From contig VBCP01000089.1 of the NCBI GenBank assembly GCA_005888925.1, positions 1-32,273 on the forward strand: a stretch of DNA of 32,273 bases. The letters run 5' to 3'. Shown here in pieces: positions 13,475 through 31,266 of this stretch. Numbering within the stretch: the first letter of the stretch is position 1; the number at the start of each line of letters is the position of its first letter. The translations under genes and the position numbers were made by a program. The notes beneath the pieces are model-generated. The model searched no databases, was not told where the DNA came from, and saw only the letters and a list, made by a program, of their open reading frames with translations. The DNA comes from Betaproteobacteria bacterium (GTDB lineage: Bacteria; Pseudomonadota; Gammaproteobacteria; Burkholderiales; SG8-39).

Positions 13475-14190
13475 GCACCGCGGTCGTCACCGGCGGCAGC
13501 GCGGGCATCGGCCGGGCGATCGCGCGGCGGCTGCTCGACGCCGGCTACGAGGTGGTCTCGCTCGATGTGCAGCCATCAGGGCTCGCGCATACGAAACTGA
13601 AGCACGTGCATGTGGATCTGGCGGACGCCGAAGCGACGCGCCACGCCGCCGCCGAGGTCACGCGCGACCACGCGGTGACCACCGTGATCCACAACGCCGG
13701 CGTCATCCGCCCTGCCCTGCTGCCCGATCTCAAGCTGCCGGACTTCAATGCGCTGGTCAATGTCCACCTGGCTGCGGCCATCGTGCTGGTGCAGGCGGCG
13801 CTGCCGACGATGAAGAACGCCGGCTACGGGCGCGTGGTGCTGGTGTCCTCGCGCGCGGTGCTCGGCCTGCCGACGCGCACCTCCTACTCGGCGACCAAGG
13901 CCGGCATGCTCGGCATGGCGCGCACCTGGGCGCTCGAGCTCGCGCCGCACGGCGTGACGGTGAACGTGGTCGCCCCCGGGCCGATCCAGACGGCGAATTT
14001 CCACAGCATCATCCCCGAGGGCAGCCCCCAGGTCGAGCGCGTGATCGATACGATCCCGGTGAAGCGGCTAGGTCAGCCCGACGACGTCGCGCGCGCGGTC
14101 ATGTTCTTCGCCGAGCGCGACGCGGGCTTTGTCACCGGCCAGGTGCTCTACGTCTGCGGCGGCACGAGCGTCGGCACGCTGACCCTGTAG
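13471..14190 (+). CDS. Short-chain dehydrogenase/reductase
   Basis: VVTGGSAGIGRA, NAG, YSATKAG, GQVLYVCGG. GTGA overlap with the beta subunit. Confidence 0.88.
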   Translation: MSTAVVTGGSAGIGRAIARRLLDAGYEVVSLDVQPSGLAHTKLKHVHVDLADAEATRHAAAEVTRDHAVTTVIHNAGVIRPALLPDLKLPDFNALVNVHLAAAIVLVQAALPTMKNAGYGRVVLVSSRAVLGLPTRTSYSATKAGMLGMARTWALELAPHGVTVNVVAPGPIQTANFHSIIPEGSPQVERVIDTIPVKRLGQPDDVARAVMFFAERDAGFVTGQVLYVCGGTSVGTLTL

Positions 14191-15360: not shown

Positions 15361-16640
15361 CAGACCGGCTCGCGCATCGCGCGGCGCAGGTAGGCGGTAA
15401 CCGGCGCGAGCAGGTAATCGAAGGCGGTGCGGCTGTCGGTGCGGATGAACACCTCCGCGGGCATGCCGGCCTGCATCTTCAGATCGCCCAGCGAACCGGG
15501 AGCAACCTCGATCTGGGCGACGTAATACGGCGCGTTCTTGTTCTCGGAATCCATCAGCCGATCGCCGGACACATAGCTCACGCGCCCGACGACCAGCGGC
15601 GTGGTGCGCTGCTTGTACGCGGTCAGGCGCACGTCGGCGGGCGTGCCCTTCGCGACGTGGTTGATGTCTTCGGGCCGGATGCGCGCTTCCAGGATCAGGG
15701 TCTTTTCCGCCGGCACGATCTCCATCAGCACGTCGCGCGGACCGACCACCGCGCCCGGCGTGAAGACCCGCAGGCCGACCACCTCACCCGCGTTCGGCGC
15801 GAGCACCTGCTGGCGCGCGGCGGCATCGCGCGACGGGCGCAGGCGTTCTTCCAGATCGAAGATGTGCGCGGTGGTGTCCTTCAGCTCGTCCACCGCGTTC
15901 TGCTTGTAGCTGTTCCGCGCGGTGATGATGCGAAGCTCGAGCTCGCTCGCCTTCTGGCGGCTGCGCGCCAGCTCGGCGCGATGCTCGCCGTGCTTGACCT
16001 CGTATTCGGCTACCGCGCGTTGCAGGGTCAGGACCCGGATCTTCTGCACGTAGTTCTGGCGCAGCAGCTCCTCGTTCGCCGTCAACTCTTCCTTCTGCAG
16101 CGCGATGGCGCGCTCCTCGGCGGCGAGCTGCGCCGCCAGGGCCGCCGCTTCAGCCTGTGTCTCGCCGATCTGCACGCGCAAGGCCGCCACCTGGCTATCG
16201 ACGGAGGACCGGCGCGACTGGAAGAGAGCGCGCTCGCGCTCGAGAATCTCCGCGACGCGCGGCTCGCGCTCACGCCGCCCGATGTCGGCGGGAAAACCGG
16301 GCTTAGGCGCAAAGCTGGCCTCCGCCCCCAAGCGCGCCTCCTTTGCGCGCTCAGCGATAAGTTGGATCGAGAGCAGATCCAGCGTGGAATCCACTTTCAC
16401 GTCCTCGAGCACGACCAGCGTCTGGCCCTGCTTCACCGTGTCGCCGTCGCGCACCCGGATCTCGCGCACGATGCCGCCTTCCTGGTGCTGCACCACCTTG
16501 CGGTTGAGATCGACCTTGACGAACGCGGGAGCGACGATCGCGCCCGAGAGCGGCGCGAGAATCGTCCAGCCGCCAAGGCCGATCATTCCGGCTGCGATGA
16601 TCAGCAATCCTGCGCAAACCAGGCGCTTGAGCTCGCTCAT
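15360..16640 (-). CDS. HlyD-family type I secretion periplasmic adaptor (MFP)
   Basis: N-terminal TM segment, long coiled-coil middle, C-terminal GMPAEVFI motif. ATGA overlap with the ABC gene. Confidence 0.88.
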   Translation of the reverse strand: MSELKRLVCAGLLIIAAGMIGLGGWTILAPLSGAIVAPAFVKVDLNRKVVQHQEGGIVREIRVRDGDTVKQGQTLVVLEDVKVDSTLDLLSIQLIAERAKEARLGAEASFAPKPGFPADIGRREREPRVAEILERERALFQSRRSSVDSQVAALRVQIGETQAEAAALAAQLAAEERAIALQKEELTANEELLRQNYVQKIRVLTLQRAVAEYEVKHGEHRAELARSRQKASELELRIITARNSYKQNAVDELKDTTAHIFDLEERLRPSRDAAARQQVLAPNAGEVVGLRVFTPGAVVGPRDVLMEIVPAEKTLILEARIRPEDINHVAKGTPADVRLTAYKQRTTPLVVGRVSYVSGDRLMDSENKNAPYYVAQIEVAPGSLGDLKMQAGMPAEVFIRTDSRTAFDYLLAPVTAYLRRAMREPV

Positions 16641-18295
16641 GCGGCACGCCTCACCACGCGCGAGAGGATCTCGCTGCGCGGGCCGAAGGCTTCGACCGCG
16701 CCTTCCCGCAGCACCAGCACCTTGTCGACACCGCCGAGCAGCGAGGGACGGTGGGCGACGATGATCACGGTCACTGCCTCCGCCTTGAGGCCATGGAGCG
16801 TGGCGAGCAGCGCCTGCTCGCCGTCGTGGTCGAGGTTCGCGTTCGGCTCGTCGAGCACGATGAGGCGCGGCGTGCCGTAAAGCGCGCGCGCGAGCCCGAT
16901 GCGCTGGCGCTGCCCGGGCGAAAGCGCGCTCGCGCCTTCGCCCAGCTCGGTGTCGTAGCCCTGCGGCAGGCGCAGGATCAGCTCGTGCACGTGCGCGCGT
17001 TGCGCAGCGCGCACCACCTCGGCGTCATCGGGCTGGTCGAGACGCGCGATGTTCCGCGCGATGGTGCCCGCGAAAAGCTCGACGTCCTGCGGCAGATAAC
17101 CGAGGTGCGGTCCGAGGCTCTCCCGCGGCCACATCGAGACATCGGCGCCGTCGAGGCGCACCGCGCCGGCGCTCGGGCGCCACACGCCGATCAGCAGCCG
17201 CGCGAGGGTCGACTTGCCCGACGCGCTCGGCCCGATGATGCCGAGCGATTCGCCGGGAGCGAGCGAGAACGAGGCGCCGCGGATGATCGGGCGCTGCACG
17301 CCGCGGACGCCGAATACGAGGTTCTCCACGGCCAGGCGGCCTTCCGGCGCCGGCAGCGCAGTGTGCGGCTCCGCGGTTGCGGGCGCGGCAAAAAGCTGGC
17401 TCAGGCGCCGCCAGGCGCCGCGCGCTTCGACCAGCGCGCGCCAGCCCGCTATGAGCTGCTCCACCGGCGCGAGCGCCCGGCCGAGCAGGATGGTGGCGGC
17501 AATCATCACGCCCGCCGTGACCTGCTGGTCGATGACGATGTAGGCGCCAAGCGCGAGCATTGCGGACTGGATGAATTGGCGTGCGAACTTGGTGAGACCC
17601 GAGATCGCGGCGCCGGAGCGCGTGGCCCGCGTCTGCTCGACGAGCGCCACCTCGTTGAGCTCGACCCACCGCCGAGCGACGGCGGGCAGCATGCCAAGCG
17701 CACCAACCACCTCGGCATTGCGCAGGCTGGTATCGATGAAGCGCGCGGCGCGCCGGCCTTCGGCTTGCGAACGCTCGAGGGGCTTGCGCGTCATGCGCTC
17801 GTTGACGAAGGCAAGCGTGAGCATGACGAGCGCGCCGGCGAGCGCCATGGCGCCCATCAAGGGATGGAACAGCGTGATCACGAGCAGGAACACCGGCAGC
17901 CAAGGCGCGTCGAACAGGGCGAGGATCCCGCTGCCGCTGAAGAACCTGCGCAGGCAATGCACATCGCGCAGCGCGCTGGCGTGCTCGCGGCTGCCGAGCC
18001 GCGCCGCCTCGCCCAGCAGTCCGTCGAGCACCTTCGGCCCGAGCCTGCGGTCGAGCGCAGTGCCAAGCGCAGCCAGCAGGTACGCGCGCACTATGTCCAG
18101 CGCCGCCATGCTCACGAGCGCCATCGCCACCGCCACGCTGAGGACGAGCAGCGTCTCGTCGCTGCGGCTCGTCAGCACGCGGTCGAACACCTGCAGCATA
18201 TAGAGCGGCGGCGCGAGCAGCAGCAGGTTCATCGCCAGGCTGAAGAGCCCGGCAAAGACGAGATACGGCCGCAGCCCTGCGAGGATCTTCTGCAC
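16637..18295 (-). CDS. Type I secretion system permease/ATPase (PrtD/AprD type, no C39 peptidase domain)
   Basis: LYMLQVFDRVL N-terminal motif, Walker A GPSASGKST, signature LSPGQRQR, Walker B LIVLDEP. GTG start. Confidence 0.9.
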   Translation of the reverse strand: MQKILAGLRPYLVFAGLFSLAMNLLLLAPPLYMLQVFDRVLTSRSDETLLVLSVAVAMALVSMAALDIVRAYLLAALGTALDRRLGPKVLDGLLGEAARLGSREHASALRDVHCLRRFFSGSGILALFDAPWLPVFLLVITLFHPLMGAMALAGALVMLTLAFVNERMTRKPLERSQAEGRRAARFIDTSLRNAEVVGALGMLPAVARRWVELNEVALVEQTRATRSGAAISGLTKFARQFIQSAMLALGAYIVIDQQVTAGVMIAATILLGRALAPVEQLIAGWRALVEARGAWRRLSQLFAAPATAEPHTALPAPEGRLAVENLVFGVRGVQRPIIRGASFSLAPGESLGIIGPSASGKSTLARLLIGVWRPSAGAVRLDGADVSMWPRESLGPHLGYLPQDVELFAGTIARNIARLDQPDDAEVVRAAQRAHVHELILRLPQGYDTELGEGASALSPGQRQRIGLARALYGTPRLIVLDEPNANLDHDGEQALLATLHGLKAEAVTVIIVAHRPSLLGGVDKVLVLREGAVEAFGPRSEILSRVVRRAA

Positions 18296-19192: not shown

Positions 19193-19567
19193 ATGCCTCT
19201 CTCCCACCGGAGCTACGGCGCGGCGCGCGTGGTGTCGCCGCGCGGCCGGCTCGATCACGACAATTGCGAGGGCTTCCAGCGCGACCTCGCGGCGCAGCTC
19301 GACGCGTGCACGCAGGAGGGCGCGGCGCTGGTGCTCGATATGTCGGGCATCGAATACGTCTCGAGCGCGGGCCTGCGCTGCCTGATGATCGCCGCGAAGC
19401 AGGCCGCGACGCGCGCGAGCCGCATCGTGGTCGCCTCGCCGCAGCCGGTGGTCGCCGAAATCCTGCAGATCAGCCGCTTCAATCTAGTGCTGCCGGTGTT
19501 CGGCACGACGCGCGAGGCGCTCGCTTCGATCTCGCCGCAGGCGGCGCAGGCCTTCGACAAGGGCTGA
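19193..19567 (+). CDS. STAS-domain anti-sigma-factor antagonist (RsbV/SpoIIAA-like)
   Basis: 124 aa. LVLDMSGIEYVSSAGLRCL with the conserved Ser position. Confidence 0.85.
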   Translation: MPLSHRSYGAARVVSPRGRLDHDNCEGFQRDLAAQLDACTQEGAALVLDMSGIEYVSSAGLRCLMIAAKQAATRASRIVVASPQPVVAEILQISRFNLVLPVFGTTREALASISPQAAQAFDKG

Positions 19568-19574
19568 GCGCGCC

Positions 19575-20484
19575 ATGCGCGTACGCTTCTGGGGTACGCG
19601 CGGCTCGATCCCGGTCGCCGGCCTCGGGACGGCGCTTCGAGTCCTACGGCGAGGCATATGCCTTCGCCCAGGAGGCGCTGCCCTTCTCGGTGAGCCACAG
19701 CTTCGGCGGCCACACCTCGTGCGTCGAATTCGAGACCGGCCACGCCGAGTACTTCGTCTGCGACATGGGCAGCGGCGCGCGCGCCTTCGGCGAGCACATC
19801 CTCGCGCGCCAGGGCGAGCGTCCCGCGACGGTGAATGTCTTCATGTCGCACGTGCACTGGGACCACATCATGGGCTTCCCGTTTTTCGGCCCGGCCTACG
19901 TCCCGGGGACGCGGATCCGCATCCATGGCTGCCACGACATCCTCGAGCACGCGTTTCGCCTGCAGCAGTCGCCGCCCTGCTTCCCGGTGTCGTTCGAGCA
20001 GCTCGGCGCGACCATCGAGTTCGTCCGGCTGGCCGCGGGCAAGCCGTTCCATGTTTCCGGCCTGAGCGTGACGCCGCAGCTGCAGCGCCACTCCGGCGAC
20101 TCGTACGGCTACCGCTTCGAGATCGGCGGCCGCAGCATCGTCTACACCACCGATTCGGAGCACAAGCTCGAGGATCGCGTGCAGACCGCGGCCATCGTCG
20201 CCTTCTTCCGCGATGCGGATCTCGTCATCTTCGACGCCATGTACTCCCTGGCGGAGGCGATCTCGGTGAAGGAGGACTGGGGCCATTCCAGCAACGTGGT
20301 GGGGGTCGAGCTCTGCCAGATGGCGGGCGCAAAGCACCTGGTGCTCTTCCACCACGAGCCCGCCAACAGCGACGCGGCGATCGAGGGCGCGCTGCGCGAC
20401 GCCCGCCGCCTGGAGGAGCTGACGCGCGGCGCGCAACCGCTGCGCGTCTCCGCCGCGCACGACGGGCTGGAGATCGATCTCTGA
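19575..20484 (+). pseudogene. MBL-fold metallo-hydrolase; frame-disrupted near the 5' end
   Basis: MRVRFWGTRGSIPVA is in one frame. The remainder (RRFESYGEAY...GGHTSCVEF...SHVHWDHIMG...HHEP) is in another. The change lies at about 19615-19630. Confidence 0.75.
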
Positions 20485-20488
20485 GTTT

Positions 20489-20493
20489 GAGGG
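20489..20493 (+). promoter_or_regulatory. Shine-Dalgarno-like GAGGG, 7 nt upstream of in-frame CTG 20501
   Basis: Read directly from the sequence. There is no in-frame ATG/GTG/TTG between the upstream in-frame region and Met 20630, yet the CHASE2-like N-terminal TM segment is encoded upstream of 20630. Confidence 0.4.
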
Positions 20494-20500
20494 TTTTCGT

Positions 20501-22415
20501 CTGAGGTTCGGCTCGGGCCCGCGCGCGGTCGGCACCGGTCTCGCCGCGGCGCTGTGCCTGCTCGTCGGCCTGGAACCGCCGCCGCTCGGCGCCCTGCGCG
20601 ACACGGTCTTCGACGGCTACCAGAAGCTGATGCCGCGCAGCCGCGCCACGGCCCCGGCAGTGATCGTCGCCATCGACGAGCGCGCGCTCGACGCGCGCGG
20701 CCAGTGGCCCTGGCCGCGCAACGTGCTCGCGCAGCTGGTCGACGCGATCAACGCGGCGCGACCGGCCGCCCTGGGCATCGATCTGCTGTTCGTCGAGCCC
20801 GATCGCTCTTCGGCAGGCGCCGATGCCGTGCTCGCGCAGGCCATCCAGCGCGGGAAGGTGGTGATGGGGATCGCCGGCCTGGAATACCGCGACCGGCGCT
20901 ATCCGTTCCCGCCGCAGGCGGCGCCGACGCGCGTTGCGACCAAGCGCGAGCTGCCGCTGCGCCGCTTCGACGGGCACCTGCAGAGCCGCGCGGAGATCAA
21001 CCGCGCCGCGGACGGCCGGGGCCTCATCAGCTCCGACGCGAAGGAGATCGTGCGGCGCGTGCCGCTCGCTGCGCGCATCGGCCAGGTGATCGTGCCCGCG
21101 CTCTCCATCGAGATGATCCGCGTCGCGGTCGGCGCGCCGCTCCTGCGGCTCACGGATCAGGGCGGCGAGCGCGTGACACTGGGGATCGGCGATCTCAGCG
21201 TGCCGCTGCAGTCCGACGGCTCGCTGCACGTCTACTTCGGCCACCACGATGCCGAGCGCTTCGTCTCGGCCGAGGACGTGCTCAGCGGGCCTGGGCTTGC
21301 TCGACTACCAGATTACGGCGCTCGGCGAGCGCATCCCCGGCGTCGAGGTGCACGCGCAGATCCTCGAGCAGATCTTCGATGGCGAGTATCTGCGCCGCCC
21401 GACCGGCGCGACCTGGATCGAGGCGGCGCTGCTTGCTGCGGCGGGTTTGGTTCTGGTCATCTGTGTCCCCATCGTCCGACCGTGGGTCTCGGCAAGCCTG
21501 CTCGCGGCATTGCTCGGGGCGCTGGCGGCGACCGGGCTCGTCGCGTTCCGCGCGGGATCCCTGTTGAACGTCGCGGCGCCGGCCCTCGGCGCGGCGTTCC
21601 TGTTCGCGACGCTCCTCGCCTCGACCCTCGCCGAGGCCGACCGCCAGCGGCGCCTGCTGCGCGAGGCGCAGGCCCGGGTGGCGGGCGAGCTCGAAGCGGC
21701 GCGCCGCATCCAGATGGGCCTGCTGCCCGCGCCGCGCGAGCTCTTCGCCGCCGAGCGGCGCTTCTCGCTCGAGGCCCTCCTCGAGCCGGCGCGCACCGTC
21801 GGCGGCGACTTCTACGACTGCTTCATGCTCGACCCGCACCACCTCTTCTTCCTCGTCGGCGACGTCTCGGGCAAAGGCCTGGCGGCGAGCCTTTTCATGG
21901 CCCTGTCGAAGTCGCTGCTGAAGAGCCTGGCGCTGCGCGGCGCGCGCGACCCGGCGGAAATCTTCAACCAGGCGAACGCCGAGATCAGCCGCGACAACCC
22001 CGAGTCGCTCTTCGTCACCGCCTTCGCCGGCGTGCTCGACGCGCGCAACGGCCGCCTCGCCTTCTGCAGCGCCGGGCACGAACCGCCGGTGGCGTGCCAG
22101 CCCGGCGGCGCGCCGCAGCGGCTGATGCAGTCGGGCGGGCCGCCGCTCTGCGTGATCCGCGACTTCGCCTATTCCGCGAGCGAGCTCGAGCTCGAGCCGG
22201 GCGGCTGGCTCTGCGTCGTCACCGACGGCGTGACGGAGGCGATGAACGAACGCGGCGAGCTGTATGGCGCCGCACGACTGCTTGAGACGGTACGAGGTCT
22301 AGCAGAACCGGGCGCGATCGCCGCAGCGGTGCGCGACGATGTCAGGCGCTTCGCCGGGAAGGCGGAGCAGTCCGATGACCTGACGCTGCTTTGCGTGCGC
22401 CGGAACGGCGCCTAG
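20501..22415 (+). pseudogene. CHASE2 sensor - TM region - SpoIIE/PP2C phosphatase fusion (RsbU-like); frame-disrupted, with a putative CTG start
   Basis: CHASE2-like N-terminal part (VIVAIDERALDARGQWPWPR...GIDLLF...) runs to about 21290. A shifted frame then carries GLLDYQITALGERIPGVEVHAQ, three TM helices and the PP2C motifs (GGDFYD, GDVSGKG, TDGVTEA, DDLTLL). A GAGGG Shine-Dalgarno lies 7 nt before CTG 20501. Confidence 0.75.
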
Positions 22416-22996
22416 CGGACGTTGATCTCGACGCGGCGGTTGCGCGGCTCGTCGACGTCGTCGGCTGTCGGAATCAGGAGCTCGCGCTCGCCGCGCCCGG
22501 CGGTGCGGATGCGCCCGGCCGGGATGCCGATATCGACGAGAAAGCCCTTCACCGTCTCGGCGCGCTGCGCCGAGAGCCGATCGTTGCCCGCGGCATCGCC
22601 CACGGTGTCGGTATGGCCGATCACCAGCACGTCGGGCAGCGGGCGGTCCTTGAGCGCGGCGAGCACGTTCTGCAGCTCGGCCTTCGACTCCGGGGTGAGC
22701 TCGTCCGTGCCGGTGATGAAGTGCAGCATGAATGCCGTGGGCCGCGCCGGCAGCGCCTGCAGCGTGGCGCCAAAGTTTTCGCGCACCTCGGCATCGGAGA
22801 GGCGCGCGACTTCGGCCTCGCCGGTGCGGCTCGCGGCGTACGGCTGGTCGAGGACCTGCCGGGTCTCGCCGCGCTGCACGACTACCGTGCCTACTTTGCC
22901 GTCGGGGCCGGGCAGCACCACCACCGTTTCGTTCGTGGCCGGACGCATGAGGAACAGCGCCAGGCCGATCGCGGCCGCGACGACCAGGACTCCCAA
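22412..22996 (-). CDS. OmpA-C-like (peptidoglycan-binding) domain protein with an N-terminal TM anchor
   Basis: VIGHTDTVGDAAGNDRLSAQRAETV...NRRVEI. TTG start directly after the fecR-like stop. Confidence 0.82.
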   Translation of the reverse strand: MGVLVVAAAIGLALFLMRPATNETVVVLPGPDGKVGTVVVQRGETRQVLDQPYAASRTGEAEVARLSDAEVRENFGATLQALPARPTAFMLHFITGTDELTPESKAELQNVLAALKDRPLPDVLVIGHTDTVGDAAGNDRLSAQRAETVKGFLVDIGIPAGRIRTAGRGERELLIPTADDVDEPRNRRVEINVR

Positions 22997-23422
22997 TCAG
23001 TCGACCTTCACGATGAATTCCGTGCCGCGAACGCCCATGATCGCCGACGGCGTACGCACATGCATGGCATCAGGCGACTGCTTGACGATCTTGCCGGAGA
23101 TCACGGCAAGCGTGCCCTTGCTGAGCGTGCTGTCGAACTTGCCGGCGTGCGTGGTCGAGTCGAACACGTACTGATCGATGGCGAGGACGCTGTTCGGGCC
23201 TACAGACAGGAGGCTGTTGTCGGTGAAGGTCACGCCGACGGTGCCATCGGCCCCGGTCACCAGCTTGTCGGCCTGCTGCACCGGCATGCCCACGCGCACC
23301 GGCAGGCGCTCCGCGCCGCGCTCGAGATGCGCGGCGCCGCGCGCGACTTTCACCTCGCCAACGTCGGCGGCCCACGCGGTCGCCGTGAAGCCGAGCAGGA
23401 CTGCAGCCATCGTGAAGCGCAT
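22997..23422 (-). CDS. FecR-domain periplasmic protein
   Basis: Signal peptide MRFTMAAVLLGFTATAWA. FecR-like core (VKVARGAAHLERG...PVRVGMPVQQADKLVTGADGTVGVTFTDNSLLSVGPNS..., VRGTEF). GGGAG Shine-Dalgarno upstream. Confidence 0.8.
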   Translation of the reverse strand: MRFTMAAVLLGFTATAWAADVGEVKVARGAAHLERGAERLPVRVGMPVQQADKLVTGADGTVGVTFTDNSLLSVGPNSVLAIDQYVFDSTTHAGKFDSTLSKGTLAVISGKIVKQSPDAMHVRTPSAIMGVRGTEFIVKVD

Positions 23423-23455
23423 ATAGGACTCCCAAGGGGTTGTTTTTTCGGATTC

Positions 23456-23461
23456 TATAAT
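23456..23461 (+). promoter_or_regulatory. -10 consensus TATAAT, 12 nt upstream of ATG 23474 of the RsbW-like gene
   Basis: Perfect consensus hexamer in the fecR/rsbW-like divergent spacer. No clear -35 or Shine-Dalgarno. Confidence 0.35.
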
Positions 23462-23473
23462 GCGCGCAACCCC

Positions 23474-23830
23474 ATGGCCGACCGCGTGAAAAATGCCCGT
23501 TCAGCAATGTTTCTTGCACGCCTCGCCGAGCTGCGCAGCATCGGCTCGTTCCTGGAGGGCTTTTGCGCCGACAGCCAGCTCGAGCGCGAGCGCTGCCTGC
23601 GCCTCAACCTGGTGCTCGAGGAACTGTTCATCAATACCGTGAACCACGGTCACCGCGGCGATTGCGACGCGCCCATCTGGATCCTGCTCGACGCGCAGCC
23701 GCAGGCCGTGCACCTGACCTACGAGGACACCGCTCCCCCGTTCGTGCTGCTTACGCGCGAACTCGCGGCCGCGCGCGACTACGCCTATCTCTTCGGCCGC
23801 AACCGCATCCGGCTCTCGCTGCTTCGGTAA
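23474..23830 (+). CDS. Small GHKL-type anti-sigma regulatory factor / Ser kinase-like protein (RsbW/SpoIIAB-like), apparently lacking the G2 (GGxG) box
   Basis: N-box LVLEELFINTVNHG, G1-like YEDTAPPF, C-terminal YAYLFGRNRIRLSL. Start ATG 23474 or 23507. Confidence 0.65.
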   Translation: MADRVKNARSAMFLARLAELRSIGSFLEGFCADSQLERERCLRLNLVLEELFINTVNHGHRGDCDAPIWILLDAQPQAVHLTYEDTAPPFVLLTRELAAARDYAYLFGRNRIRLSLLR

Positions 23831-23840
23831 ACCTGAGGCG

Positions 23841-24383
<543 letters not shown>

Positions 24384-24435
24384 CTAGCCGAGCGGGTCGT
24401 CAAAGTCGCACGAAGCACCGTAGGTTTGATCTCCG

Positions 24436-26361
24436 ATGTGCGGCATCGCCGGCTTCTTCGCGCTCACGCCCCGTACGCTCGCGCCGCGCGGCGTGCTCGA
24501 GCGCATGGTCGAGGCGGTGCGCCATCGCGGGCCGGATGACGCCGGCGTCTATCTCGACCGCCGCGCCGGCCTCGGGCATCGGCGGCTCTCGATCATCGAT
24601 CTCGCCGGCGGCAAGCAGCCGCTTGCCACCGCCGATGAAAAGCTGTGGGTCACGTTCAACGGCGAAATCTTCAACTACGTCGAGCTGACCAAGGAGCTGA
24701 CCGCGCGCGGCCGCCAGTTCCGCACGCGCAGCGACACCGAGACCATCCTGCACGCCTACGCCGAGTATGGACCCGCGTGCGTCGAATCTTTCAACGGCGA
24801 CTTCGCCTACGCCATCTGGGACCGCGAGCGCCAGCGCCTCGTCATGGCGCGCGACCGCATGGGCGTGCGGCCGCTTTACTACACCGTTCACGACGGCGTG
24901 CTGGTATTCGCCTCCGAGGTGAAATCGCTGTTCCTTTATCCGGGGCTGCGCGCCGAGCTCGACCCGCTGGGCCTCGATCAGTGCTTCACGTTCTGGTCGC
25001 CGCTCGCCCCGCGCACCGCCTTCAAGGGCGTGCACGAGCTGCCGCCGGGACACCAGCTCATCGCGGAGCACGGCACGCTGAAAGTGCAGCCGTACTGGAA
25101 GCTGCGCTTCCCGGCGCGCGGCGAGCGCTCGCGCGCGGATGCAGATGCCATTGGCGAGCAAGTGGAAGCGCTGCTCGCCGACGCGACGCGCATCCGCATG
25201 CGGGCCGACGTGCCCGTCGGCGCCTATCTGAGCGGCGGCTTCGACTCCTCGGTGACCACGGCGCTCGCCAAGGGGTACAACGAAGGCCTGCGCACTTTCT
25301 CGCTCGAGTTTGAAAGCCCCGAGCTCGACGAATCGGCCTATCAACGCACCCTTGTGGAAGCGTTGGGCACGGACCACTCCTCACTGCGCTGCAAGGGCGG
25401 CGACATCGCCGCGGCCTTCGAGCAGGTCATCCGGCACACCGAGCGGCCCGTGCTGCGCGCGGCGCCGGCGGCGCTCTACCTGCTCGCGCGCCAGGTGCGC
25501 GACCATGGCTTCAAGGTGGTGCTCACCGGCGAAGGCGCGGACGAAGTCTTCGGCGGCTACGACATCTTCAAGGAAGCGCTGGTGCGCCGCTTCTGGGCGC
25601 GCCAGCCGAACTCGAAATGGCGCCCGCTGCTCCTGCGCCGGCTCTACCCGTACCTCGGCGGCCTGCAATCGCAGCCGGCGCGCTATCTGGAAGCCTTCTT
25701 CCGCACCGGCCTCGCCGCGGGCGACGATCCGCTGTTTTCGCACCTGCCGCGCTTCGCGCTCACGCGGCGCATCAGCCAGTTCTACTCGGGCGATCTGCGC
25801 CGCGCGATCAATGGCTACGACCCGCTCGAAGACCTGCGTTCCACCCTGCCGCCGGAATTCGGCTCCTGGCACCCGCTGTCGCGCGCGCAGTACCTCGAGA
25901 CCGGCTGTCTGCTGCCCGGCTACATCCTTTCGTCGCAGGGCGACCGCGTCGCCATGGCCCACGCGGTCGAAGGCCGCTTCCCGTTCCTCGACCACCGCGT
26001 GGTCGAGCTGGGCGCCGCGCTGCCCCCGGCGATGAAGGTCAAGGGGCTGCGCGAGAAGTACGTGCTGCGCCGCGCGCTCGGGCGGCATCTGCCGCGCGCG
26101 ATCGTCGAGCGCCCCAAGCAGCCGTATCGCGCGCCCGACAGCGAAAGCTTCCTGCATGCCGGCGCGCCCGGGTACGTGGATGCGCTGCTCGCCCCCGAGG
26201 CGATCGGCCGCGCGGGCTATTTCGAGCCGCGCGCCGTGCGCCGCCTGGTCGACAAGTGCCGTAATCCGCTCGGACCGGTCTCGGCCGGCGACAACATGGC
26301 GTTCATCGGTATCCTGTCGACGCAGCTGCTGCATTCATGCTACGTGCAAGCGTTGATCTGA
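24436..26361 (+). CDS. Asparagine synthase-family glutamine amidotransferase (AsnB-like; resembles exopolysaccharide/exosortase-locus amidotransferases)
   Basis: MCGIAGFF Ntn nucleophile, PP-loop YLSGGFDSS. 641 aa. Confidence 0.88.
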   Translation: MCGIAGFFALTPRTLAPRGVLERMVEAVRHRGPDDAGVYLDRRAGLGHRRLSIIDLAGGKQPLATADEKLWVTFNGEIFNYVELTKELTARGRQFRTRSDTETILHAYAEYGPACVESFNGDFAYAIWDRERQRLVMARDRMGVRPLYYTVHDGVLVFASEVKSLFLYPGLRAELDPLGLDQCFTFWSPLAPRTAFKGVHELPPGHQLIAEHGTLKVQPYWKLRFPARGERSRADADAIGEQVEALLADATRIRMRADVPVGAYLSGGFDSSVTTALAKGYNEGLRTFSLEFESPELDESAYQRTLVEALGTDHSSLRCKGGDIAAAFEQVIRHTERPVLRAAPAALYLLARQVRDHGFKVVLTGEGADEVFGGYDIFKEALVRRFWARQPNSKWRPLLLRRLYPYLGGLQSQPARYLEAFFRTGLAAGDDPLFSHLPRFALTRRISQFYSGDLRRAINGYDPLEDLRSTLPPEFGSWHPLSRAQYLETGCLLPGYILSSQGDRVAMAHAVEGRFPFLDHRVVELGAALPPAMKVKGLREKYVLRRALGRHLPRAIVERPKQPYRAPDSESFLHAGAPGYVDALLAPEAIGRAGYFEPRAVRRLVDKCRNPLGPVSAGDNMAFIGILSTQLLHSCYVQALI

Positions 26362-26449
26362 AAGCGGCTGATCTGAAGGAAGCTGCCCGATTCGAATCCC
26401 GTGTCACGAAGCTCGGCTATCGTCTCGCTTGCCCGGAAACTCCCAGCCC

Positions 26450-26725
26450 ATGAAACACGATATCAGCCTCGCTGTGCGCCGCTTCATCGGCGAGAATTTC
26501 ATGTTCCGCGACGACGGCGACGCCATCACGCATGATGCCTCGCTGCTCGACGCCGGCATCATCGACTCCACCGGCGTGCTCGAGCTGGTGTGCTTTCTCG
26601 AGAGCAGCTTCGGCATCGAAGTGCACGACGAGGAGATGCTGCCGGAGAACCTCGACTCGATCCGCGCGATCAGCGCTTACGTCAGCCGCAAGCTCGAATC
26701 CCGCAAGATCGAACTCGTTGCTTGA
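26450..26725 (+). CDS. Acyl/aminoacyl carrier protein
   Basis: 91 aa. Phosphopantetheine Ser in LLDAGIIDSTGVLELV. Start ATG 26450 preferred over 26429. Confidence 0.8.
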   Translation: MKHDISLAVRRFIGENFMFRDDGDAITHDASLLDAGIIDSTGVLELVCFLESSFGIEVHDEEMLPENLDSIRAISAYVSRKLESRKIELVA

Positions 26726-28209
26726 CGGTGCGAGTCGAATCCTTCCTGCTCGAAAGCGCCCGGCGCTTTCCAGCTAAGACCGCGCTGGTCGCCGGGCCGG
26801 CGCGCCTGAGCTATCAGGAGCTCGCTGCCCGCGCGGCTTCGTTCGCCGCCGAGTTGCGACGCCAGGGCGTGGCGCGCAGCGATCGCGTCGTCATCTTCCT
26901 GCACAACTCGCCCGAGGCGGTGATCGCCGTCTTCGGCACGCTGCTCGCGGGCGGCGTGTTCAGCGTGGTCAACCCCGGCACCAAGGCCGACAAGCTCGCC
27001 TACATCCTCAACCATTGCACGGCAAAGGCGCTGGTCACCGAGCCTCGCCTCGCTGAGGTCGCCAGCTCGGCGCGCGAGAGCGCCCCGGCAGTCGCGACGA
27101 CGCTGGTCACACCGTTCAATTTCGAGCAAGCGCCAGCGCCCGCACAGCCGGGGATCGATCTCGACCTGGCGATGATCGTCTACACCTCTGGCTCAACGGG
27201 ATTTCCGAAGGGCGTGACGATGACGCACGCCAACATCGCGGCGGCCGCGACTTCGATCACCACCTATCTCGACAGCCGTGCCGAGGACATCGTCCTGTCG
27301 GTGCTGCCGCTCGCCTTCGATTACGGCCTGTACCAGGCGCTGATGTGCGCCAAGGTCGGCGCCACGCTGGTGCTGGAGAAATCGTTCACCTACCCGGCGG
27401 TGGTGCTGGAGAAGCTGAAAAGCGAGCGCGTCACCGGCTTTCCGCTCGTGCCGACGCTCGCCGCGATGCTCTTGCAGATGAAGCAGCTCGCGCCCGGGAT
27501 GTTTCCCGACCTGCGATATCTGACGAATACGGCGGCGGCGCTGCCGCGCGCGCACATCGAGCGGCTGCGCGAGCTCTTCCCGCAGGCGAAGCTCTACTCG
27601 ATGTACGGCCTCACCGAATGCAAGCGCTGCACCTATCTGCCGCCCGAGCAGCTCGCGCTGCGGCCCGAGTCGGTCGGCATCGCGATTCCCGGCACCGAGG
27701 CCTACGTGGTCGACGAGCTGGGCCAGCGCGTCGCGCCAGGCACCGTGGGCGAGCTCGTGATCCGCGGTGCGCACGTGATGCAAGGCTACTGGGCCGACGA
27801 GGAAGCGACCGCGCGCGTGCTGCGGCCGGGGCCCTACCCGTGGGAGAAGGTGCTGCACACCGGCGATCTATTCCGCAGCGACGACCAAGGCTACCTGTAC
27901 TTCGTCGGCCGCAAGGACGACATCATCAAGACGCGCGGCGAGAAGGTGAGCCCGAAAGAGGTCGAGAACGTGCTCTACGAGCTTCCCGGGATCCGCGAAG
28001 CGGCGGTCATCGGCGTGCCCGATCCGATCTTAGGCGAGGCGGTGAAGGCGATCGTCGCCGCCGATGACGGCGTCACCGAGCGCGACATCATCCGCCACTG
28101 CGCGGCGCGCCTCGAGGACTTCATGGTGCCCTCGTCGGTCGAGTTCCGCGGCCAGCTGCCCAAGAGCGAGAACGGCAAGATCGCGCGCAAGGAGCTCGTC
28201 GCCGCATGA
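26722..28209 (+). CDS. AMP-forming acyl-CoA/carrier-protein ligase (ANL adenylating enzyme)
   Basis: IVYTSGSTGFPKGV, YGLTE, TGDL, GRKDDIIKTRGEKV, PKSENGKIARKEL. TTG 26722 (TTGA overlap with the carrier protein gene) or GTG 26728. Confidence 0.88.
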   Translation: MTVRVESFLLESARRFPAKTALVAGPARLSYQELAARAASFAAELRRQGVARSDRVVIFLHNSPEAVIAVFGTLLAGGVFSVVNPGTKADKLAYILNHCTAKALVTEPRLAEVASSARESAPAVATTLVTPFNFEQAPAPAQPGIDLDLAMIVYTSGSTGFPKGVTMTHANIAAAATSITTYLDSRAEDIVLSVLPLAFDYGLYQALMCAKVGATLVLEKSFTYPAVVLEKLKSERVTGFPLVPTLAAMLLQMKQLAPGMFPDLRYLTNTAAALPRAHIERLRELFPQAKLYSMYGLTECKRCTYLPPEQLALRPESVGIAIPGTEAYVVDELGQRVAPGTVGELVIRGAHVMQGYWADEEATARVLRPGPYPWEKVLHTGDLFRSDDQGYLYFVGRKDDIIKTRGEKVSPKEVENVLYELPGIREAAVIGVPDPILGEAVKAIVAADDGVTERDIIRHCAARLEDFMVPSSVEFRGQLPKSENGKIARKELVAA

Positions 28210-29174
28210 ACGCGCGCTTCGATCCCCTTTCACTGAATTTAAACGCAGCCGTCGAGGTCGAGCGCATCGCCACGACGCTGCGCAGCCAGGTGCTCAAGCA
28301 GCTGCGCCGCAAGGGCGTGGTGCTCGGGCTTTCGGGCGGCGTCGACTCGAGCGTGGTGGCCGCGCTCTGCGTGCGCGCCTTCGGCGCAGACCGCGTGCTC
28401 GGCATCTACATGCCGGAGCAGGACTCCGAGCCGGATAGCTTGCGGCTGGGGCAAGCCGTCGCCGAGTGGCTCGGCATCGAGACGGTGCTCGAGGACATCA
28501 CGCCGATACTGGTCGGTGCCGGCTGCTATCGGCGGCGCGACGAGTACATCCGGCGCCTCGTCCCGGAATACGGCCCGGGCTGGCGCTCGAAGGTGGTATT
28601 GCGCAAGGCCAAGGGCACGGCGGGATACAACGTGTTTCACCTCGTGGTGCGCGGCCCGCACGGCGAGGAAAAGGAAGCGCGCATGCCGCCCGAGGTCTAC
28701 CTCGGCATCGTCGCCACCACCAACATGAAGCAGCGCACGCGCAAGCAGCTCGAGTACTACCACGCCGATCGCCTGCAGTACGCGGTCGCGGGCACCCCCA
28801 ACCGCCTCGAGTACGACCAGGGCTTCTTCGTCAAGAACGGCGACGGCGCGGCCGACGTCAAGCCGATCGCCCACCTCTACAAGTCGCAGGTCTACCAGCT
28901 CGCCGCCGAGCTCGGCGTCCCCGAGGAGATCCGCAGCCGGCCGCCGACCACCGACACCTATTCGCTCGCGCAGACGCAGGAAGAGTTCTTTTTTGGCATC
29001 TCGCTGCGCACGCTCGACGTGTGCATGTACGCGCTCGATCAGGGCGTGCCGGCCGAGACCGTCGCGCCCGCGGTGGGCTTGAGCACCGAGCAGGTGCTGG
29101 ACGTATTCCGCGACATCGCCGGGCGGCGCCGCAGCACGCGCTACCAGCACGAGCAGCCGCTGCTCGTCGCGTAG
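28206..29174 (+). CDS. NAD+ synthetase (NadE)-family N-type ATP pyrophosphatase
   Basis: PP-loop LGLSGGVDSSV; GTPNRLEYDQGFFVKNGDGAADVKPIAHLYKSQV. ATGA overlap with the ligase. Confidence 0.82.
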   Translation: MNARFDPLSLNLNAAVEVERIATTLRSQVLKQLRRKGVVLGLSGGVDSSVVAALCVRAFGADRVLGIYMPEQDSEPDSLRLGQAVAEWLGIETVLEDITPILVGAGCYRRRDEYIRRLVPEYGPGWRSKVVLRKAKGTAGYNVFHLVVRGPHGEEKEARMPPEVYLGIVATTNMKQRTRKQLEYYHADRLQYAVAGTPNRLEYDQGFFVKNGDGAADVKPIAHLYKSQVYQLAAELGVPEEIRSRPPTTDTYSLAQTQEEFFFGISLRTLDVCMYALDQGVPAETVAPAVGLSTEQVLDVFRDIAGRRRSTRYQHEQPLLVA

Positions 29175-29181
29175 GTCGCCT

Positions 29182-29799
29182 GTGCGTCAAGCGACTAGGC
29201 ACAAGGCGAGCACCGTCTGGGTCCAGGTGGGCGACGGCGCCCGCCTGGAGCTGCATCACACGCCCTGGTGGCGGCACATCTACCGCGATTTCCGGCGCTA
29301 CCGCGTCACGGCCGACGCGGCGCTGCGCACCATCTTTCTCACCCAGGGATTCTGGGCGAGCTGCATCTATCGCCTGTCGCGCGCCGGGGTGAAGCACGCG
29401 GGCTGGATCTCACGGCCGCTCGCGGCGCTCGCGCAGAAGCTGGTGGAGATCGTCACCGGCATCAGCGTCCCCGCGCAATGCGAGATCGGCGACGGTCTCT
29501 ACATCGGCCATTACGGCTCGATCATCCTCTCCCCCGAGGCGCGCATCGGGCATAACTGCAGCCTCGCGCAGAACGTCACCATCGGCGTGGCGGGGGCGAT
29601 CGGCGACGACGTGGTGGTCTGCGCCGGCTCGGTCGTGAGCCGCTCGGTGCCGGCGCGCGCCGTGGTCATGGGCAACCCGGCCCGCGTGGTGTCCTACGAC
29701 GGCAGCTTCGACTACGTGTTCTACGACGGCATGGACGTCGACCCCGCCCGGCGCGAATCGCTCGAGAAGGTCAGGTCCTTGAACGTCGGCCCGGCGTAG
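29182..29799 (+). CDS. Serine O-acetyltransferase-like hexapeptide-repeat acyltransferase
   Basis: FLTQGFWASCIYRLSR N-domain; LbH repeats IGDGLYIGHYGSIIL, IGHNCSLAQNVTIG, IGDDVVVCAGSVV; GNPARVV. GTG start 7 nt after the nadE-like stop. Confidence 0.75.
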   Translation: MRQATRHKASTVWVQVGDGARLELHHTPWWRHIYRDFRRYRVTADAALRTIFLTQGFWASCIYRLSRAGVKHAGWISRPLAALAQKLVEIVTGISVPAQCEIGDGLYIGHYGSIILSPEARIGHNCSLAQNVTIGVAGAIGDDVVVCAGSVVSRSVPARAVVMGNPARVVSYDGSFDYVFYDGMDVDPARRESLEKVRSLNVGPA

Positions 29800-29890
29800 T
29801 TCAGCGTCGAGACGAGCTCGTAATAGCTCACGCCGAGCTCCTTGGCCCAGCGGGCCAGGTCCTCGTCCCGTAGCGGGTTTGCATCGTCTG

Positions 29891-29926
29891 TAAGTCCCCT
29901 GCGTCTACCAGTTTCGCCACCTGGGC
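29891..29926 (-). pseudogene. 5' fragment of a tRNA-Leu gene (acceptor 5' strand, D-arm, anticodon stem 5' strand up to loop CTTA)
   Basis: The minus strand reads GCCCAGGTGGCGAAACTGGTAGACGCAGGGGACTTA. This closely resembles the 5' 36 nt of bacterial tRNA-Leu (compare E. coli GGTGGCGGAATTGGTAGACGC). No matching anticodon-stem 3' strand or T-arm follows. Confidence 0.6.
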
Positions 29927-29948
29927 GGGGTGGCGGACTCTAACCCAA

Positions 29949-29998: not shown

Positions 29999-30571
29999 CT
30001 AGAACCGCCAGAGCGCGCCGACGGTCAGTGTGTCGATATCGGCCTTTGTCCCCAGCCCTCCACCCCCCATCTTGCTGAAGCGCTGCCATTCGGCGCGTGC
30101 GGAGAGGATGCGGCTGAGATCAGCCTGAATGCCGACGCCATAGGTCAGGTCGGTCGTGCCGTGCTTGAGCGTGGCGCCGGTCGAGGGCGTCTCGGCCGTC
30201 ACCTCGCCGTTATAGAGGCCGAGCCTGCCGAGGAGCGAGAGTCCCATGCCGCCGGCTCCCATCGGTACGCCCCAGGTGCCCACTCCCGATAGTTCCCACG
30301 CGGTGGCCTTGAGCCGGCTCGCGCCGAACGTGGTCTTGCCCATGTCGCTATAGCCGACCTCGAGGGCGGCGTAGCGATTGAACTGAAAGCCCCCGAACAG
30401 CTTGTAGTCCCTGCCCTTGTCGTCGCAGGGGCTCGAGCAGCCGCTGAAGTTGAACTTCGACTGGCCGACGTTGAAGCCGAGGTATCCGCCGCGCGTCGTT
30501 TGCGCCGCGGCCGGAGCCGCGAATGCAGCGGCCGCCAGACCCAGAACGGCAATGATTGCGGTGCTCTTCAT
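29999..30571 (-). CDS. Small outer-membrane beta-barrel protein (OmpA-membrane/OmpW/opacity-like, 8-strand type)
   Basis: Signal peptide MKSTAIIAVLGLAAAAFAAPAAA-Q, alternating beta-strand pattern, C-terminal ...VGALWRF. AAGGGA Shine-Dalgarno before ATG 30571. Confidence 0.8.
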   Translation of the reverse strand: MKSTAIIAVLGLAAAAFAAPAAAQTTRGGYLGFNVGQSKFNFSGCSSPCDDKGRDYKLFGGFQFNRYAALEVGYSDMGKTTFGASRLKATAWELSGVGTWGVPMGAGGMGLSLLGRLGLYNGEVTAETPSTGATLKHGTTDLTYGVGIQADLSRILSARAEWQRFSKMGGGGLGTKADIDTLTVGALWRF

Positions 30572-30756
30572 AGCATTCCCTTTCTGTTGTTGGAACGTGG
30601 ACAGAACACTAGCAAAGCGGGCATTTCCATAGGTCAGCAATGGCGGAATCGCGGCCTATCGGGGGCCGGGGGTGTTGCCGAAGTGCAACGCCCTACGGGT
30701 ATCGGCCCGTATCTTGCGGCGCACACAGACTTGACGCTTGACGAAGGGAGGTCAGG

Positions 30757-31266
30757 ATGACCGCGTACACCCCTCCTCCGAAATCCAGGATTCTCCTCGC
30801 CGTCACGCCGGACATGCGGGAGCGCTTTCAGCGCATCCTGGAACGGCACGAGACGAAGTTTGTCGGAACCGCGGGCGAGGCCATCCGGGCGCTCGATGAC
30901 CTCGAGCACTTCAGGATGGTCATCCTCAGCGTGCATTTCGACGAATCACAGATGTTCTCGCTGCTCGGGGACGTCCGTGCGCATTCGAATTACCGCAAGA
31001 TCCCGATCCTGTGCGTGCTCGGGGCGCGCGGGCCGGCGATCTCGGAGGTCGCAATCGAAGGTCTGGACCATGCCGTGAAAGCGATGCGAGCCAACGGCTT
31101 CCTCGACCTGCATCACTTCGCCGATGACGACGAGGGCAACGCCAGGATCTCCAGGATCGTGGACTACCTGATTCTCATCGACGGCGATCTCCAGCACATT
31201 GCGCGCGCGCTGGACGACTCGGTGGTGCAGATCGAGCGGCGGCGGGCAAAAACACCTGCAGGCTGA
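30757..31266 (+). CDS. Receiver (CheY-like)-domain-like orphan protein lacking the canonical phospho-acceptor Asp
   Basis: The beta/alpha pattern RILLAVTPD...RMVILSVHFDESQMFSLL...KIPILCVLGA aligns by eye to the REC fold, but Ser sits at the Asp position. Strong GGGAGG Shine-Dalgarno 5 nt before the ATG. Confidence 0.45.
   Translation: MTAYTPPPKSRILLAVTPDMRERFQRILERHETKFVGTAGEAIRALDDLEHFRMVILSVHFDESQMFSLLGDVRAHSNYRKIPILCVLGARGPAISEVAIEGLDHAVKAMRANGFLDLHHFADDDEGNARISRIVDYLILIDGDLQHIARALDDSVVQIERRRAKTPAG

Follow-up and report, generated by a model that had tools for sequence, protein, structure and literature searches.

A conserved orphan asnB, carrier protein, ligase and nadE operon in a soil Burkholderiales contig, with a predicted amino-dicarboxylate substrate and two alternative acyltransferases

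A stretch of 32,273 nucleotides from a Betaproteobacteria bacterium of the order Burkholderiales (assembly GCA_005888925.1, contig VBCP01000089.1, positions 1 to 32,273; hereafter the window) carries at 24436-29799 a cassette of five genes, which encode an AsnB-like amidotransferase, a carrier protein, a stand-alone ANL adenylating ligase, a NadE-family PP-loop ATP-pyrophosphatase and a hexapeptide-repeat (LbH) acyltransferase. The first four genes constitute a conserved orphan operon organised around its own carrier protein, and the account that we favour, with slightly more confidence than doubt, is that an aspartate-like amino-dicarboxylate is tethered to this carrier protein, amidated and acylated. 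The window holds the soil Burkholderiales copy, with an LbH gene in fifth place, of an operon family already published from Sinorhizobium meliloti, and is not a new kind of system. New here are the alternation of LbH and tandem-GNAT acyltransferase genes beside the cassette and a deletion in the LbH gene of the window. An earlier interpretation made from the letters alone (hereafter the sequence-only reading) had proposed a dedicated carrier-protein pathway comprising two amidating enzymes and an acetyltransferase, and had been unable to assign its product to a known one. The proposal is supported by the comparisons described below, and the operon family is still an orphan. Three findings had been named as capable of overturning it, namely a cassette not conserved as a unit, a nadE-like gene that is the housekeeping NAD synthetase in an ordinary context and a ligase of the fatty-acid-CoA ligase clade, and none of the three was encountered.

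Conservation of the four-gene core

Relatives of the NadE-like protein were scanned for in one genome per GTDB species, yielding at least 599 pattern matches, of which at least 532 encode a relative. The best 80 of these at least 532 loci (loci are designated by L numbers) were compared together with 10-kb flanks using tblastn with the five window proteins, and a well-flanked subset was defined as the 59 loci with at least 5.5 kb of upstream and at least 2.5 kb of downstream sequence. Among the best 80, almost all loci with upstream sequence have the asnB, carrier-protein, ligase and nadE-like genes arranged as in the window, in order as well as in orientation, and the nadE-like gene directly follows the ligase gene wherever such sequence exists. 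All four core genes are present in this order in 55 of the 59 well-flanked loci, asnB being undetected in the other four. Where genes have been called, the ligase stop overlaps the nadE start by the same 4 nucleotides in Burkholderiales, in S. meliloti and in a plasmid record that bears the label Roseateles. The best 80 loci derive from Burkholderiales, Hyphomicrobiales (Sinorhizobium/Ensifer, Agrobacterium, Rhizobium, Aminobacter, Mesorhizobium, Bosea, Rhodopseudomonas and others), Planctomycetota (Gemmataceae, Fimbriiglobus and Tepidisphaerales) and an Armatimonadota genome, which we count as at least four phyla. The cassette is therefore conserved as a unit across these groups, and the grouping of the four genes is far beyond chance.

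A gene for a HemK/PrmC-like methyltransferase with an NPPY motif adjoins the cassette in 14 loci (12086-12889 in L043 and 13 others; see also 3114-3818 in L053). Characterised HemK/PrmC-like methyltransferases N-methylate a glutamine amide nitrogen, and this neighbour hints at methylation of an amide produced by the pathway.

The adenylating ligase and the carrier protein

Among specific models, the ligase was matched best by the exosortase-A-associated model TIGR03098 (467.7 bits, below the cutoff of 592.35), and its score against the generic amino-acid adenylation model TIGR01733 was just below the cutoff (292 against 317 bits). It lies under the cutoff of every FadD model, with NF004837 scoring best (365 bits, cutoff 476) and the FadD model NF006523 reaching 237 bits (cutoff 884). 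Among solved structures, the nearest is VinN (PDB ID: 3WVN, E 1.9e-85), followed by the adenylation domains of linear gramicidin synthetase (LgrA), with fatty-acid and aryl-acid ligase structures approximately 25 orders of magnitude behind. The ligase is thus placed nearest to VinN and to adenylation domains of non-ribosomal peptide synthetases and outside the fatty-acid-CoA ligase clade that the sequence-only reading had named. A FadD-type fatty-acid ligase was ruled out by the model cutoffs, the nearest structures and published non-complementation data (PMC7232532).

VinN loads (2S,3S)-3-methylaspartate or L-Asp, treated as a beta-amino acid, onto the stand-alone carrier protein VinL (PMC11253843). 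Its residue D230 binds the amino group, K330 and R331 interact with the substrate from a loop that is longer by one residue in alpha-amino-acid domains, and F231 and S299 push the substrate towards this loop (PMC11253843). In a HMMER alignment, for which the offset due to a 16-residue tag was checked, VinN residues D230, F231, S299, K330 and R331 correspond to D200, Y201, T270, K301 and R302 of the window ligase, and the ligase loop T-E-C-K-R aligns without gaps to T-E-C-K-R of VinN. The specificity residues, to which the sequence-only reading had pointed as a means of checking the ligase, accordingly retain the VinN-type Asp, Lys and Arg. Of 65 ligase sequences (the window and 64 orthologues), 54 have the pattern D-Y-T-K-R, which was also found in the S. 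meliloti orthologue when this was checked separately. Counted singly, Asp and Lys are each present in 54 and Tyr and Arg each in all 65 sequences. The 11 exceptions come from Agrobacterium, some Rhizobium, Nitratireductor, Phyllobacterium, one Aminobacter and Fimbriiglobus, and in these Asp, Thr and Lys change together (to G/N/T, A and T/L/I/A/M, respectively) while Arg is kept, which is the pattern expected from a change of substrate. Four of the 11 have the pocket G-Y-A-(L/I)-R and belong to loci without asnB (L067, L082, L088 and L089, from Rhizobium spp. and an unclassified Rhizobiales isolate); these variant cassettes have a second, distantly related ANL ligase approximately 3 kb downstream of nadE, and the substrate of their ligase has probably diverged. 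From the pocket residues we infer that the common form of the ligase would load an aspartate-like amino-dicarboxylate via its side-chain carboxyl.

The carrier protein has a pI of 4.6 and was recognised by the PP-binding model with 21.7 bits (cutoff 20.8). The putative phosphopantetheine-bearing Ser lies in an I-D-S-T-G motif and is invariant in 31 of 31 orthologues. The protein falls below the cutoff of every named acyl carrier protein (ACP) model, of which OlsHI scored best (52.7 bits, cutoff 130); the OlsH/OlsI ornithine-lipid pathway of planctomycetes was considered and set aside as a different system.

Two alternative acyltransferases

In the Burkholderiales clade, nadE is followed by the LbH gene, which also adjoins the cassette in the Armatimonadota locus and in several Planctomycetota and is absent from Alphaproteobacteria. 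Clustering of the flanking open reading frames (ORFs) identified a protein of approximately 370 residues, annotated as hypothetical, in 42 loci (5108-6232 in L059 and 41 others). Searches of Pfam, NCBIfam and PDB gave no sequence match for this protein. Its structure model has a predicted local distance difference test (pLDDT) score of 88.5 and was matched by Foldseek to N-myristoyltransferases (E 4e-13, template modelling score about 0.5); because a confident model gives this match, the protein is predicted to adopt a tandem-GNAT acyltransferase fold. An acyltransferase gene is present in all 59 well-flanked loci, LbH in 11 and tandem-GNAT in 48, with no locus lacking both, and in L084 and L085 the tandem-GNAT gene directly follows nadE, in the position held by LbH in the window. 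Since two unrelated thioester-dependent acyltransferases replace each other in this manner, an acyl-transfer step is argued to belong to the pathway. The LbH product is CysE/EpsC-like, scoring 56.8 bits in the window and 102.5 bits in a full-length relative (L010), both under the cutoff of 150, and would thus share the fold type of serine O-acetyltransferases at a score short of family membership.

In the window, the LbH gene carries an in-frame deletion of 78 bp (26 codons) after position 29596 in comparison with all relatives, among them loci L001-L003, L005 and L010 and contigs encoding an identical NadE protein, leaving 205 residues against 231-235. The deleted piece comprises a Gly-rich loop and one 18-residue coil. 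In the four soil sequencing runs examined, no contig spans 29596/29597 in the deleted form; one contig has 78 extra letters exactly at this junction and another ends in full-length LbH sequence. Because the soil-run contigs carry the full-length form, the deletion is regarded as a rare variant or an assembly error.

The two amidating enzymes

The AsnB-like protein scored 499 bits against TIGR01536 (cutoff 267) and has an N-terminal MCGI sequence, with Cys2 as the glutaminase residue, and an SGGFDS PP-loop, the MCG motif and the PP-loop being conserved in orthologues. As the N-terminal Cys is kept, the enzyme is predicted to hydrolyse glutamine. The second-best specific model is the exosortase-A amidotransferase TIGR03108 (457.5 bits, below the cutoff of 816.9) and the third-best is TIGR03104 (NAGGN; 368 bits, below the cutoff of 570). 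The closest solved relative is the hydroxyamidotransferase TsnB9 (PDB ID: 7YLZ, E 1.6e-68), ahead of Escherichia coli AsnB (E 2.8e-48); TsnB9 amidates a carboxylate other than that of aspartate.

The NadE-like protein passes the 'NAD(+) synthase' model NF002048 (489.4 bits, cutoff 313) and TIGR00552 (159.6 bits, cutoff 63.65), keeps an SGGVDS PP-loop and the catalytic segment G-F-F-V-K-N-G-D-G-A-A-D and is 62-64% identical to its rhizobial orthologues. It has no glutaminase domain. The Pfam NAD_synthase domain is split by approximately 68 extra residues (about 101-168), which fall where canonical NadE forms part of the substrate site, the generic catalytic segment being retained. The best match among solved structures, Pyrococcus horikoshii NadE, reached only E 9e-31 and did so in two segments. 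An AlphaFold model calculated with 24 close homologues was too poor to be used (pLDDT 60.7) and weakly suggests that the insertion would form a small three-stranded sheet. A literature search found no experiment on this NadE clade and no paper on NadE-like enzymes with carrier proteins, and neither the NadE family survey (PMC3376133) nor the nadE1/asnB literature contained anything useful for this clade.

These profile matches bear on a reading in which a true ammonia-dependent NAD synthetase and a true asparagine synthetase share no more than a transcript with a carrier protein and ligase that are unrelated to them. Both NF002048 and TIGR01536 are passed, the generic NadE catalytic motifs are kept and nbaC, a gene of the de novo NAD pathway, lies directly upstream in the window lineage, all of which such a mixed operon would explain. 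However, the four genes occur together, ordered and translationally coupled, across distant taxa, the NadE clade has its 68-residue insertion and only a distant likeness to characterised NadE, and the AsnB-like enzyme is nearer to TsnB9 than to E. coli AsnB. The adjacency of nbaC is confined to close Burkholderiales relatives (8 of the best 80 loci), and the S. meliloti copy is located on pSymB, a replicon that can be removed once engA and a tRNA-Arg gene, its only single-copy essential genes, have been moved elsewhere (PMC4207669). The mixed operon is therefore considered very improbable. As for the housekeeping NAD synthetase in an ordinary context that the sequence-only reading had kept in view, the context in the best 80 loci is that of the cassette; because the gene is always coupled to the ligase gene, has an orthologue on removable pSymB and has nbaC beside it only in close Burkholderiales, a housekeeping role is argued against. 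True NAD synthetase activity of the NadE-like enzyme is considered unlikely.

The counterpart operon of Sinorhizobium meliloti

A search of plasmid records located the NadE-like gene on Sinorhizobium pSymB-type replicons. In S. meliloti, pSymB carries asnB, the carrier-protein gene, a gene for an adenylate-forming enzyme and nadE, in the order and strand of the window, with nearly full-length identities of 58% (asnB), 49% (carrier protein), 62% (ligase) and 62% (nadE). In gene content, order and synteny, the window agrees throughout with the asnB-ACP-ligase-nadE operon family of the SMb20651/SMb20650 type. The pSymB carrier protein is identified as SMb20651 and the ligase as SMb20650 on the basis of replicon, gene order and published description rather than of locus tags. 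The first description of this operon and its carrier protein is said to be that of Ramos-Vega et al. (2009, Microbiology 155:257). The function of SMb20651 was still given as open in 2017 (PMC5686131).

The main rival of an amino-dicarboxylate substrate is a fatty-acyl cargo. The ligase would then be a medium- or long-chain fatty acyl-ACP synthetase, the LbH or tandem-GNAT enzyme would acylate an amine, and the AsnB-like and NadE-like enzymes would amidate the polar head group, with an N-acyl amino-lipid or a lipid decoration as the product. Such a route is consistent with the match of the tandem-GNAT model to N-myristoyltransferases, with the use of acyl-ACP by the LbH enzymes LpxA and LpxD and with the lipid-pathway ACP OlsHI as the best named model of the carrier protein, although this score is far below the cutoff. 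Conversely, tandem-GNAT folds also include acetyl- and aminoacyl-transferases, the LbH protein is of the serine-acetyltransferase and not the LpxA/LpxD type, and the ligase is nearer to the amino-acid-adenylating enzymes VinN and LgrA, with the amino-binding Asp and the Lys-Arg pair kept. Published experiments enter on both sides. SMb20650 is cotranscribed with the carrier-protein gene SMb20651, and its expression in E. coli making holo-SMb20651 led to acylated SMb20651, which agrees with loading of the carrier protein by its ligase and also speaks in favour of the lipid route; however, SMb20650 did not substitute for FadD in growth on oleate or in clearing free fatty acids (PMC7232532). On this evidence the lipid route appears unlikely.

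Exosortase and glycan context

The sequence-only reading had noted a likeness to exosortase-associated genes of some exopolysaccharide loci and the absence of exosortase and PEP-CTERM proteins from the window. Hidden Markov model searches recovered the likeness, as the exosortase A (XrtA) models match both the ligase and the AsnB-like protein, in each case below the cutoff. No exosortase, PEP-CTERM protein or associated pyridoxal phosphate (PLP) decarboxylase was found among the 25 window proteins scanned, a set that does not include all small ORFs, or among the recurrent neighbours in the best 80 loci. Membership of the exosortase-A set was rejected, since the cutoffs of TIGR03098 and TIGR03108 were not reached and the partner genes were not found.

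The glycan decoration suggested by the sequence-only reading received mixed evidence. In this alternative, an amino sugar in an O-antigen, capsule or exopolysaccharide would receive a carrier-bound unit such as N-acetyl-aspart-4-yl or isoasparaginyl, and/or uronic acids would be amidated. Its logic resembles that of the exosortase-A ligase, ACP and amidotransferase set and of WbpS, and the best-scoring specific models include the XrtA-associated ligase and amidotransferase. In three planctomycete loci (L041, L046 and L085) the cassette lies amid genes for glycosyltransferases (GT4 and GT2), an epimerase, a GFO-type oxidoreductase and a sulfotransferase, two GT1 genes lie upstream of it in L008, and a polysaccharide deacetylase gene is near the cassette in 7 loci. 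Beta-linked N-acetyl-aspartyl groups are known on Qui4N in Providencia O-antigens (PMC10609480). However, the XrtA models score well below their cutoffs and none of the partner genes named above was found, a search of limited sensitivity for glycosyltransferases within 10 kb was positive in no more than 5 of 46 long loci, on which count a glycan context was rejected as a general feature of the cassette, and the cassette is situated among core housekeeping genes in the window lineage and beside minCDE in S. meliloti. Glycan decoration as the specific function of the operon is accordingly also improbable.

Proposed pathway

Gene content, orthology, conservation, the pocket residues and the alternation of the two acyltransferases are observations, from which we infer a pathway together with the identity of its substrate, the order of its steps, the substrate of the NadE paralogue and the final product. 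In this pathway, the ligase would adenylate the side-chain carboxyl of a small amino-dicarboxylic acid, for which aspartate or a near analogue is the most likely candidate. The substrate would be held as in VinN, with the amino group bound by D200 and the distal carboxylate by K301 and R302, and the ligase would then attach the acid as a thioester to the phosphopantetheine arm of the carrier protein. Two successive ATP-dependent steps of amidation type would follow, one catalysed by the AsnB-like enzyme with nitrogen from glutamine and one by the NadE paralogue with free ammonia or an amine, in which each enzyme would activate a carboxyl (or carboxamide) group as its adenylate, on the intermediate while tethered or after its release, and the nitrogen would displace AMP. 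The LbH enzyme in the window lineage, or the tandem-GNAT enzyme elsewhere, dependent on acyl-CoA or an acyl carrier, would N-acylate the amine or pass the unit to an acceptor. A soluble amide metabolite and a glycan destination are equally possible.

Several observations weigh against this proposal. One free carboxylate is left after Asp-like loading, and two amidating enzymes therefore require a second target. Other PP-loop enzymes convert amides to an amidine or a nitrile, and the second target could be such a conversion or the acid after its release, or the substrate may have further carboxylates. The comparison with VinN comprises five aligned residues within a moderate overall similarity. 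The generic catalytic motifs of the NadE-like enzyme and its score against NF002048 would allow real NAD synthetase activity. In S. meliloti, neither acyltransferase gene is found within 9 kb of the operon, and the fifth gene of the window, in its deleted state, may be non-functional. SMb20651 produced in E. coli was reportedly acylated with C12:0 or C18:0, according to the abstract of Ramos-Vega et al. (2009), which would favour a fatty-acyl cargo.

A narrower version of the amino-dicarboxylate pathway, in which a tethered beta-aspartyl unit is amidated at its alpha-carboxyl and N-acetylated, is doubtful. The NadE paralogue would here act on a carrier-bound substrate, and the resulting N-acetyl-isoasparaginyl or aspart-4-yl group would be transferred to an amino sugar or released as an amide. 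If this version were true, the NadE paralogue would be the first NadE-family enzyme acting on a non-nucleotide, carrier-bound substrate and not on nicotinic acid adenine dinucleotide, its annotation as NAD synthase would be wrong in at least 532 species-representative genomes, and a route would be supplied for the beta-linked N-acetyl-aspartyl decorations of O-antigens.

The operon is widespread and probably in part mis-annotated, a NadE-like relative being encoded in at least 532 species-representative genomes, and the best 80 include model rhizobia and Agrobacterium. If the NadE paralogue is no NAD synthetase, routine annotation is wrong in these genomes and metabolic models that count NadE are affected. 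With a predicted Asp-like substrate for its ligase and an acyltransferase partner in two unrelated forms, the orphan ACP now becomes approachable by experiment, and S. meliloti, Agrobacterium tumefaciens and Rhodopseudomonas palustris are genetically tractable hosts of the cassette.

Architecture of the locus and its surroundings

Five plus-strand ORFs with a third-position G+C of 0.84-0.93 fill the interval of the cassette (Table 1), in a window of approximately 67% G+C overall. The five same-strand genes listed by the sequence-only reading are all present, with families assigned by profile searches, and the junctions that it described are exact, namely a TTGA overlap at 26722-26725, an ATGA overlap at 28206-28209 and a 7-nucleotide gap between the nadE-like stop (TAG, 29172-29174) and the LbH start (GTG, 29182). 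The carrier protein probably starts at ATG 26450, as called in relatives, and the ligase may start at GTG 26728, which would give 493 residues as in relatives; the tight coupling of the genes holds whichever of these starts are used. A promoter scan of 24354-24435 gave no sigma-70-like match, and the operon promoter is therefore placed by position only; a terminator scan was likewise uninformative.

Table 1. Coordinates of the cassette genes and of the intergenic region upstream
Feature	Coordinates	Strand	Profile matches or basis
asnB-like glutamine-dependent amidotransferase, 641 residues	24436..26361	+	TIGR01536, GATase_7, Asn_synthase
Carrier protein, 91 residues from ATG 26450 (mechanical ORF from TTG 26429)	26450..26725	+	PP-binding
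Stand-alone ANL adenylating ligase, 495 residues	26722..28209	+	AMP-binding and AMP-binding_C
NadE-family PP-loop ATP-pyrophosphatase, 322 residues	28206..29174	+	NF002048, NAD_synthase
Hexapeptide-repeat (LbH) acyltransferase, serine-acetyltransferase-like, 205 residues	29182..29799	+	CysE/EpsC-like, below cutoffs
Divergent intergenic region nbaC/asnB, 82 nucleotides	24354..24435	.	Presumed operon promoter, position only

The closest proteins are those of uncultured soil Burkholderiales, and the window sequence is contained in soil metagenomes. In one soil metatranscriptome, short contigs of low depth, for which carry-over of DNA is possible, fall on four of the five genes, none of them clearly on the carrier-protein gene. 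Close relatives have the same five genes at the same chromosomal place, flanked upstream by a partner-switching module, OmpA-like and FecR-like genes and a divergent 3-hydroxyanthranilate dioxygenase gene, and downstream by genes for tRNA-Leu, tRNA-Cys and tRNA-Gly and by pgsA, uvrC, efp, acpS, pdxJ, recO, era, rnc and lepB. Because it is syntenic in close relatives, the cassette is regarded as a stable chromosomal feature and not as a mobile island or part of a larger biosynthetic cluster.

On the upstream side of the window, nbaC (23844-24353, minus strand), which encodes a stand-alone 3-hydroxyanthranilate 3,4-dioxygenase, diverges from asnB. Directly before it, a partner-switching module at 19193-23830 encodes a STAS antagonist, a metallo-beta-lactamase-fold protein, a CHASE2-SpoIIE phosphatase and an HATPase_c_2 kinase, interleaved with minus-strand OmpA-like and FecR-like genes and syntenic in close relatives. 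The phosphatase gene (approximately 20540-22412, plus strand) is split into two frames near 21289, which is a frameshift or a sequencing error, a single ORF of 647-655 residues being present in relatives. Further upstream, some 6-10 kb from the cassette, the minus strand at 14068-18295 encodes a PrtD-type type I secretion ABC transporter, an HlyD adaptor and a GT4 glycosyltransferase.

Downstream, 29800-29890 resembles a short coding remnant on the minus strand. At approximately 29891-29945, also on the minus strand and about 300 bp beyond the LbH deletion, lies only the 5' half of a tRNA-Leu(TAA) gene that is intact in close relatives, and ARAGORN reported no tRNA at 29891-29945. In each of the four soil runs, contigs end at 29891, where the depth spikes, and this junction is either a chimeric join made in assembly or the scar of an integration. 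The segment 29999-31266, which separates the tRNA-Leu remnant from tRNA-Cys, has a lower G+C of approximately 63.5% and contains an OmpA-like beta-barrel ORF (29999-30640, minus strand) and an unassigned ORF of 169 residues (30757-31266, plus strand). As the corresponding interval is only approximately 370 nucleotides in L005-L007 and approximately 3.2 kb in L012, the tRNA-adjacent spot is considered variable.

Comparison with known systems

The XrtA/PEP-CTERM set shares with the cassette an AsnB-like amidotransferase, an ANL ligase and a carrier protein, whereas the NadE paralogue is present in the window cassette and not in the XrtA set. The NAGGN pathway (Ngg and AsnO) likewise combines an AsnB-like amidotransferase with an N-acetyltransferase and leads to an N-acetylated, amidated amino-acid derivative, but it employs an enzyme of the ATP-grasp type, and neither a carrier protein nor an ANL ligase nor a NadE paralogue takes part in it. 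With ammonia-dependent NadE (EC 6.3.1.5), the window protein has in common the motifs SGGxDS and G-F-F-x-K-x-G-D-G-x-x-D and the overall domain, and it differs in its 68-residue insertion and in the context of a carrier-protein cassette. In the VinN/VinL pair of vicenistatin biosynthesis, the carrier protein is loaded by the adenylation enzyme and both are stand-alone proteins, as is predicted for the window, and pocket residues and loop length match. However, the VinN/VinL host is an actinomycete and that of the window is proteobacterial, the window is without a second adenylation enzyme or a VinK-type acyltransferase and has two PP-loop amidating enzymes instead, and VinN-type partners, namely a PLP decarboxylase (VinO) and a polyketide synthase, were not found in the window or among the recurrent neighbours. 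The S. meliloti operon is the same in its four genes, their order and strand, the 4-nucleotide overlap of ligase and nadE and the ligase pocket D-Y-T-K-R. It differs in its flanks, since it has no acyltransferase gene within 9 kb and lies beside minCDE on pSymB, whereas the window cassette has an LbH gene coupled to nadE and occupies a chromosomal core region between nbaC and the tRNA genes and pgsA.

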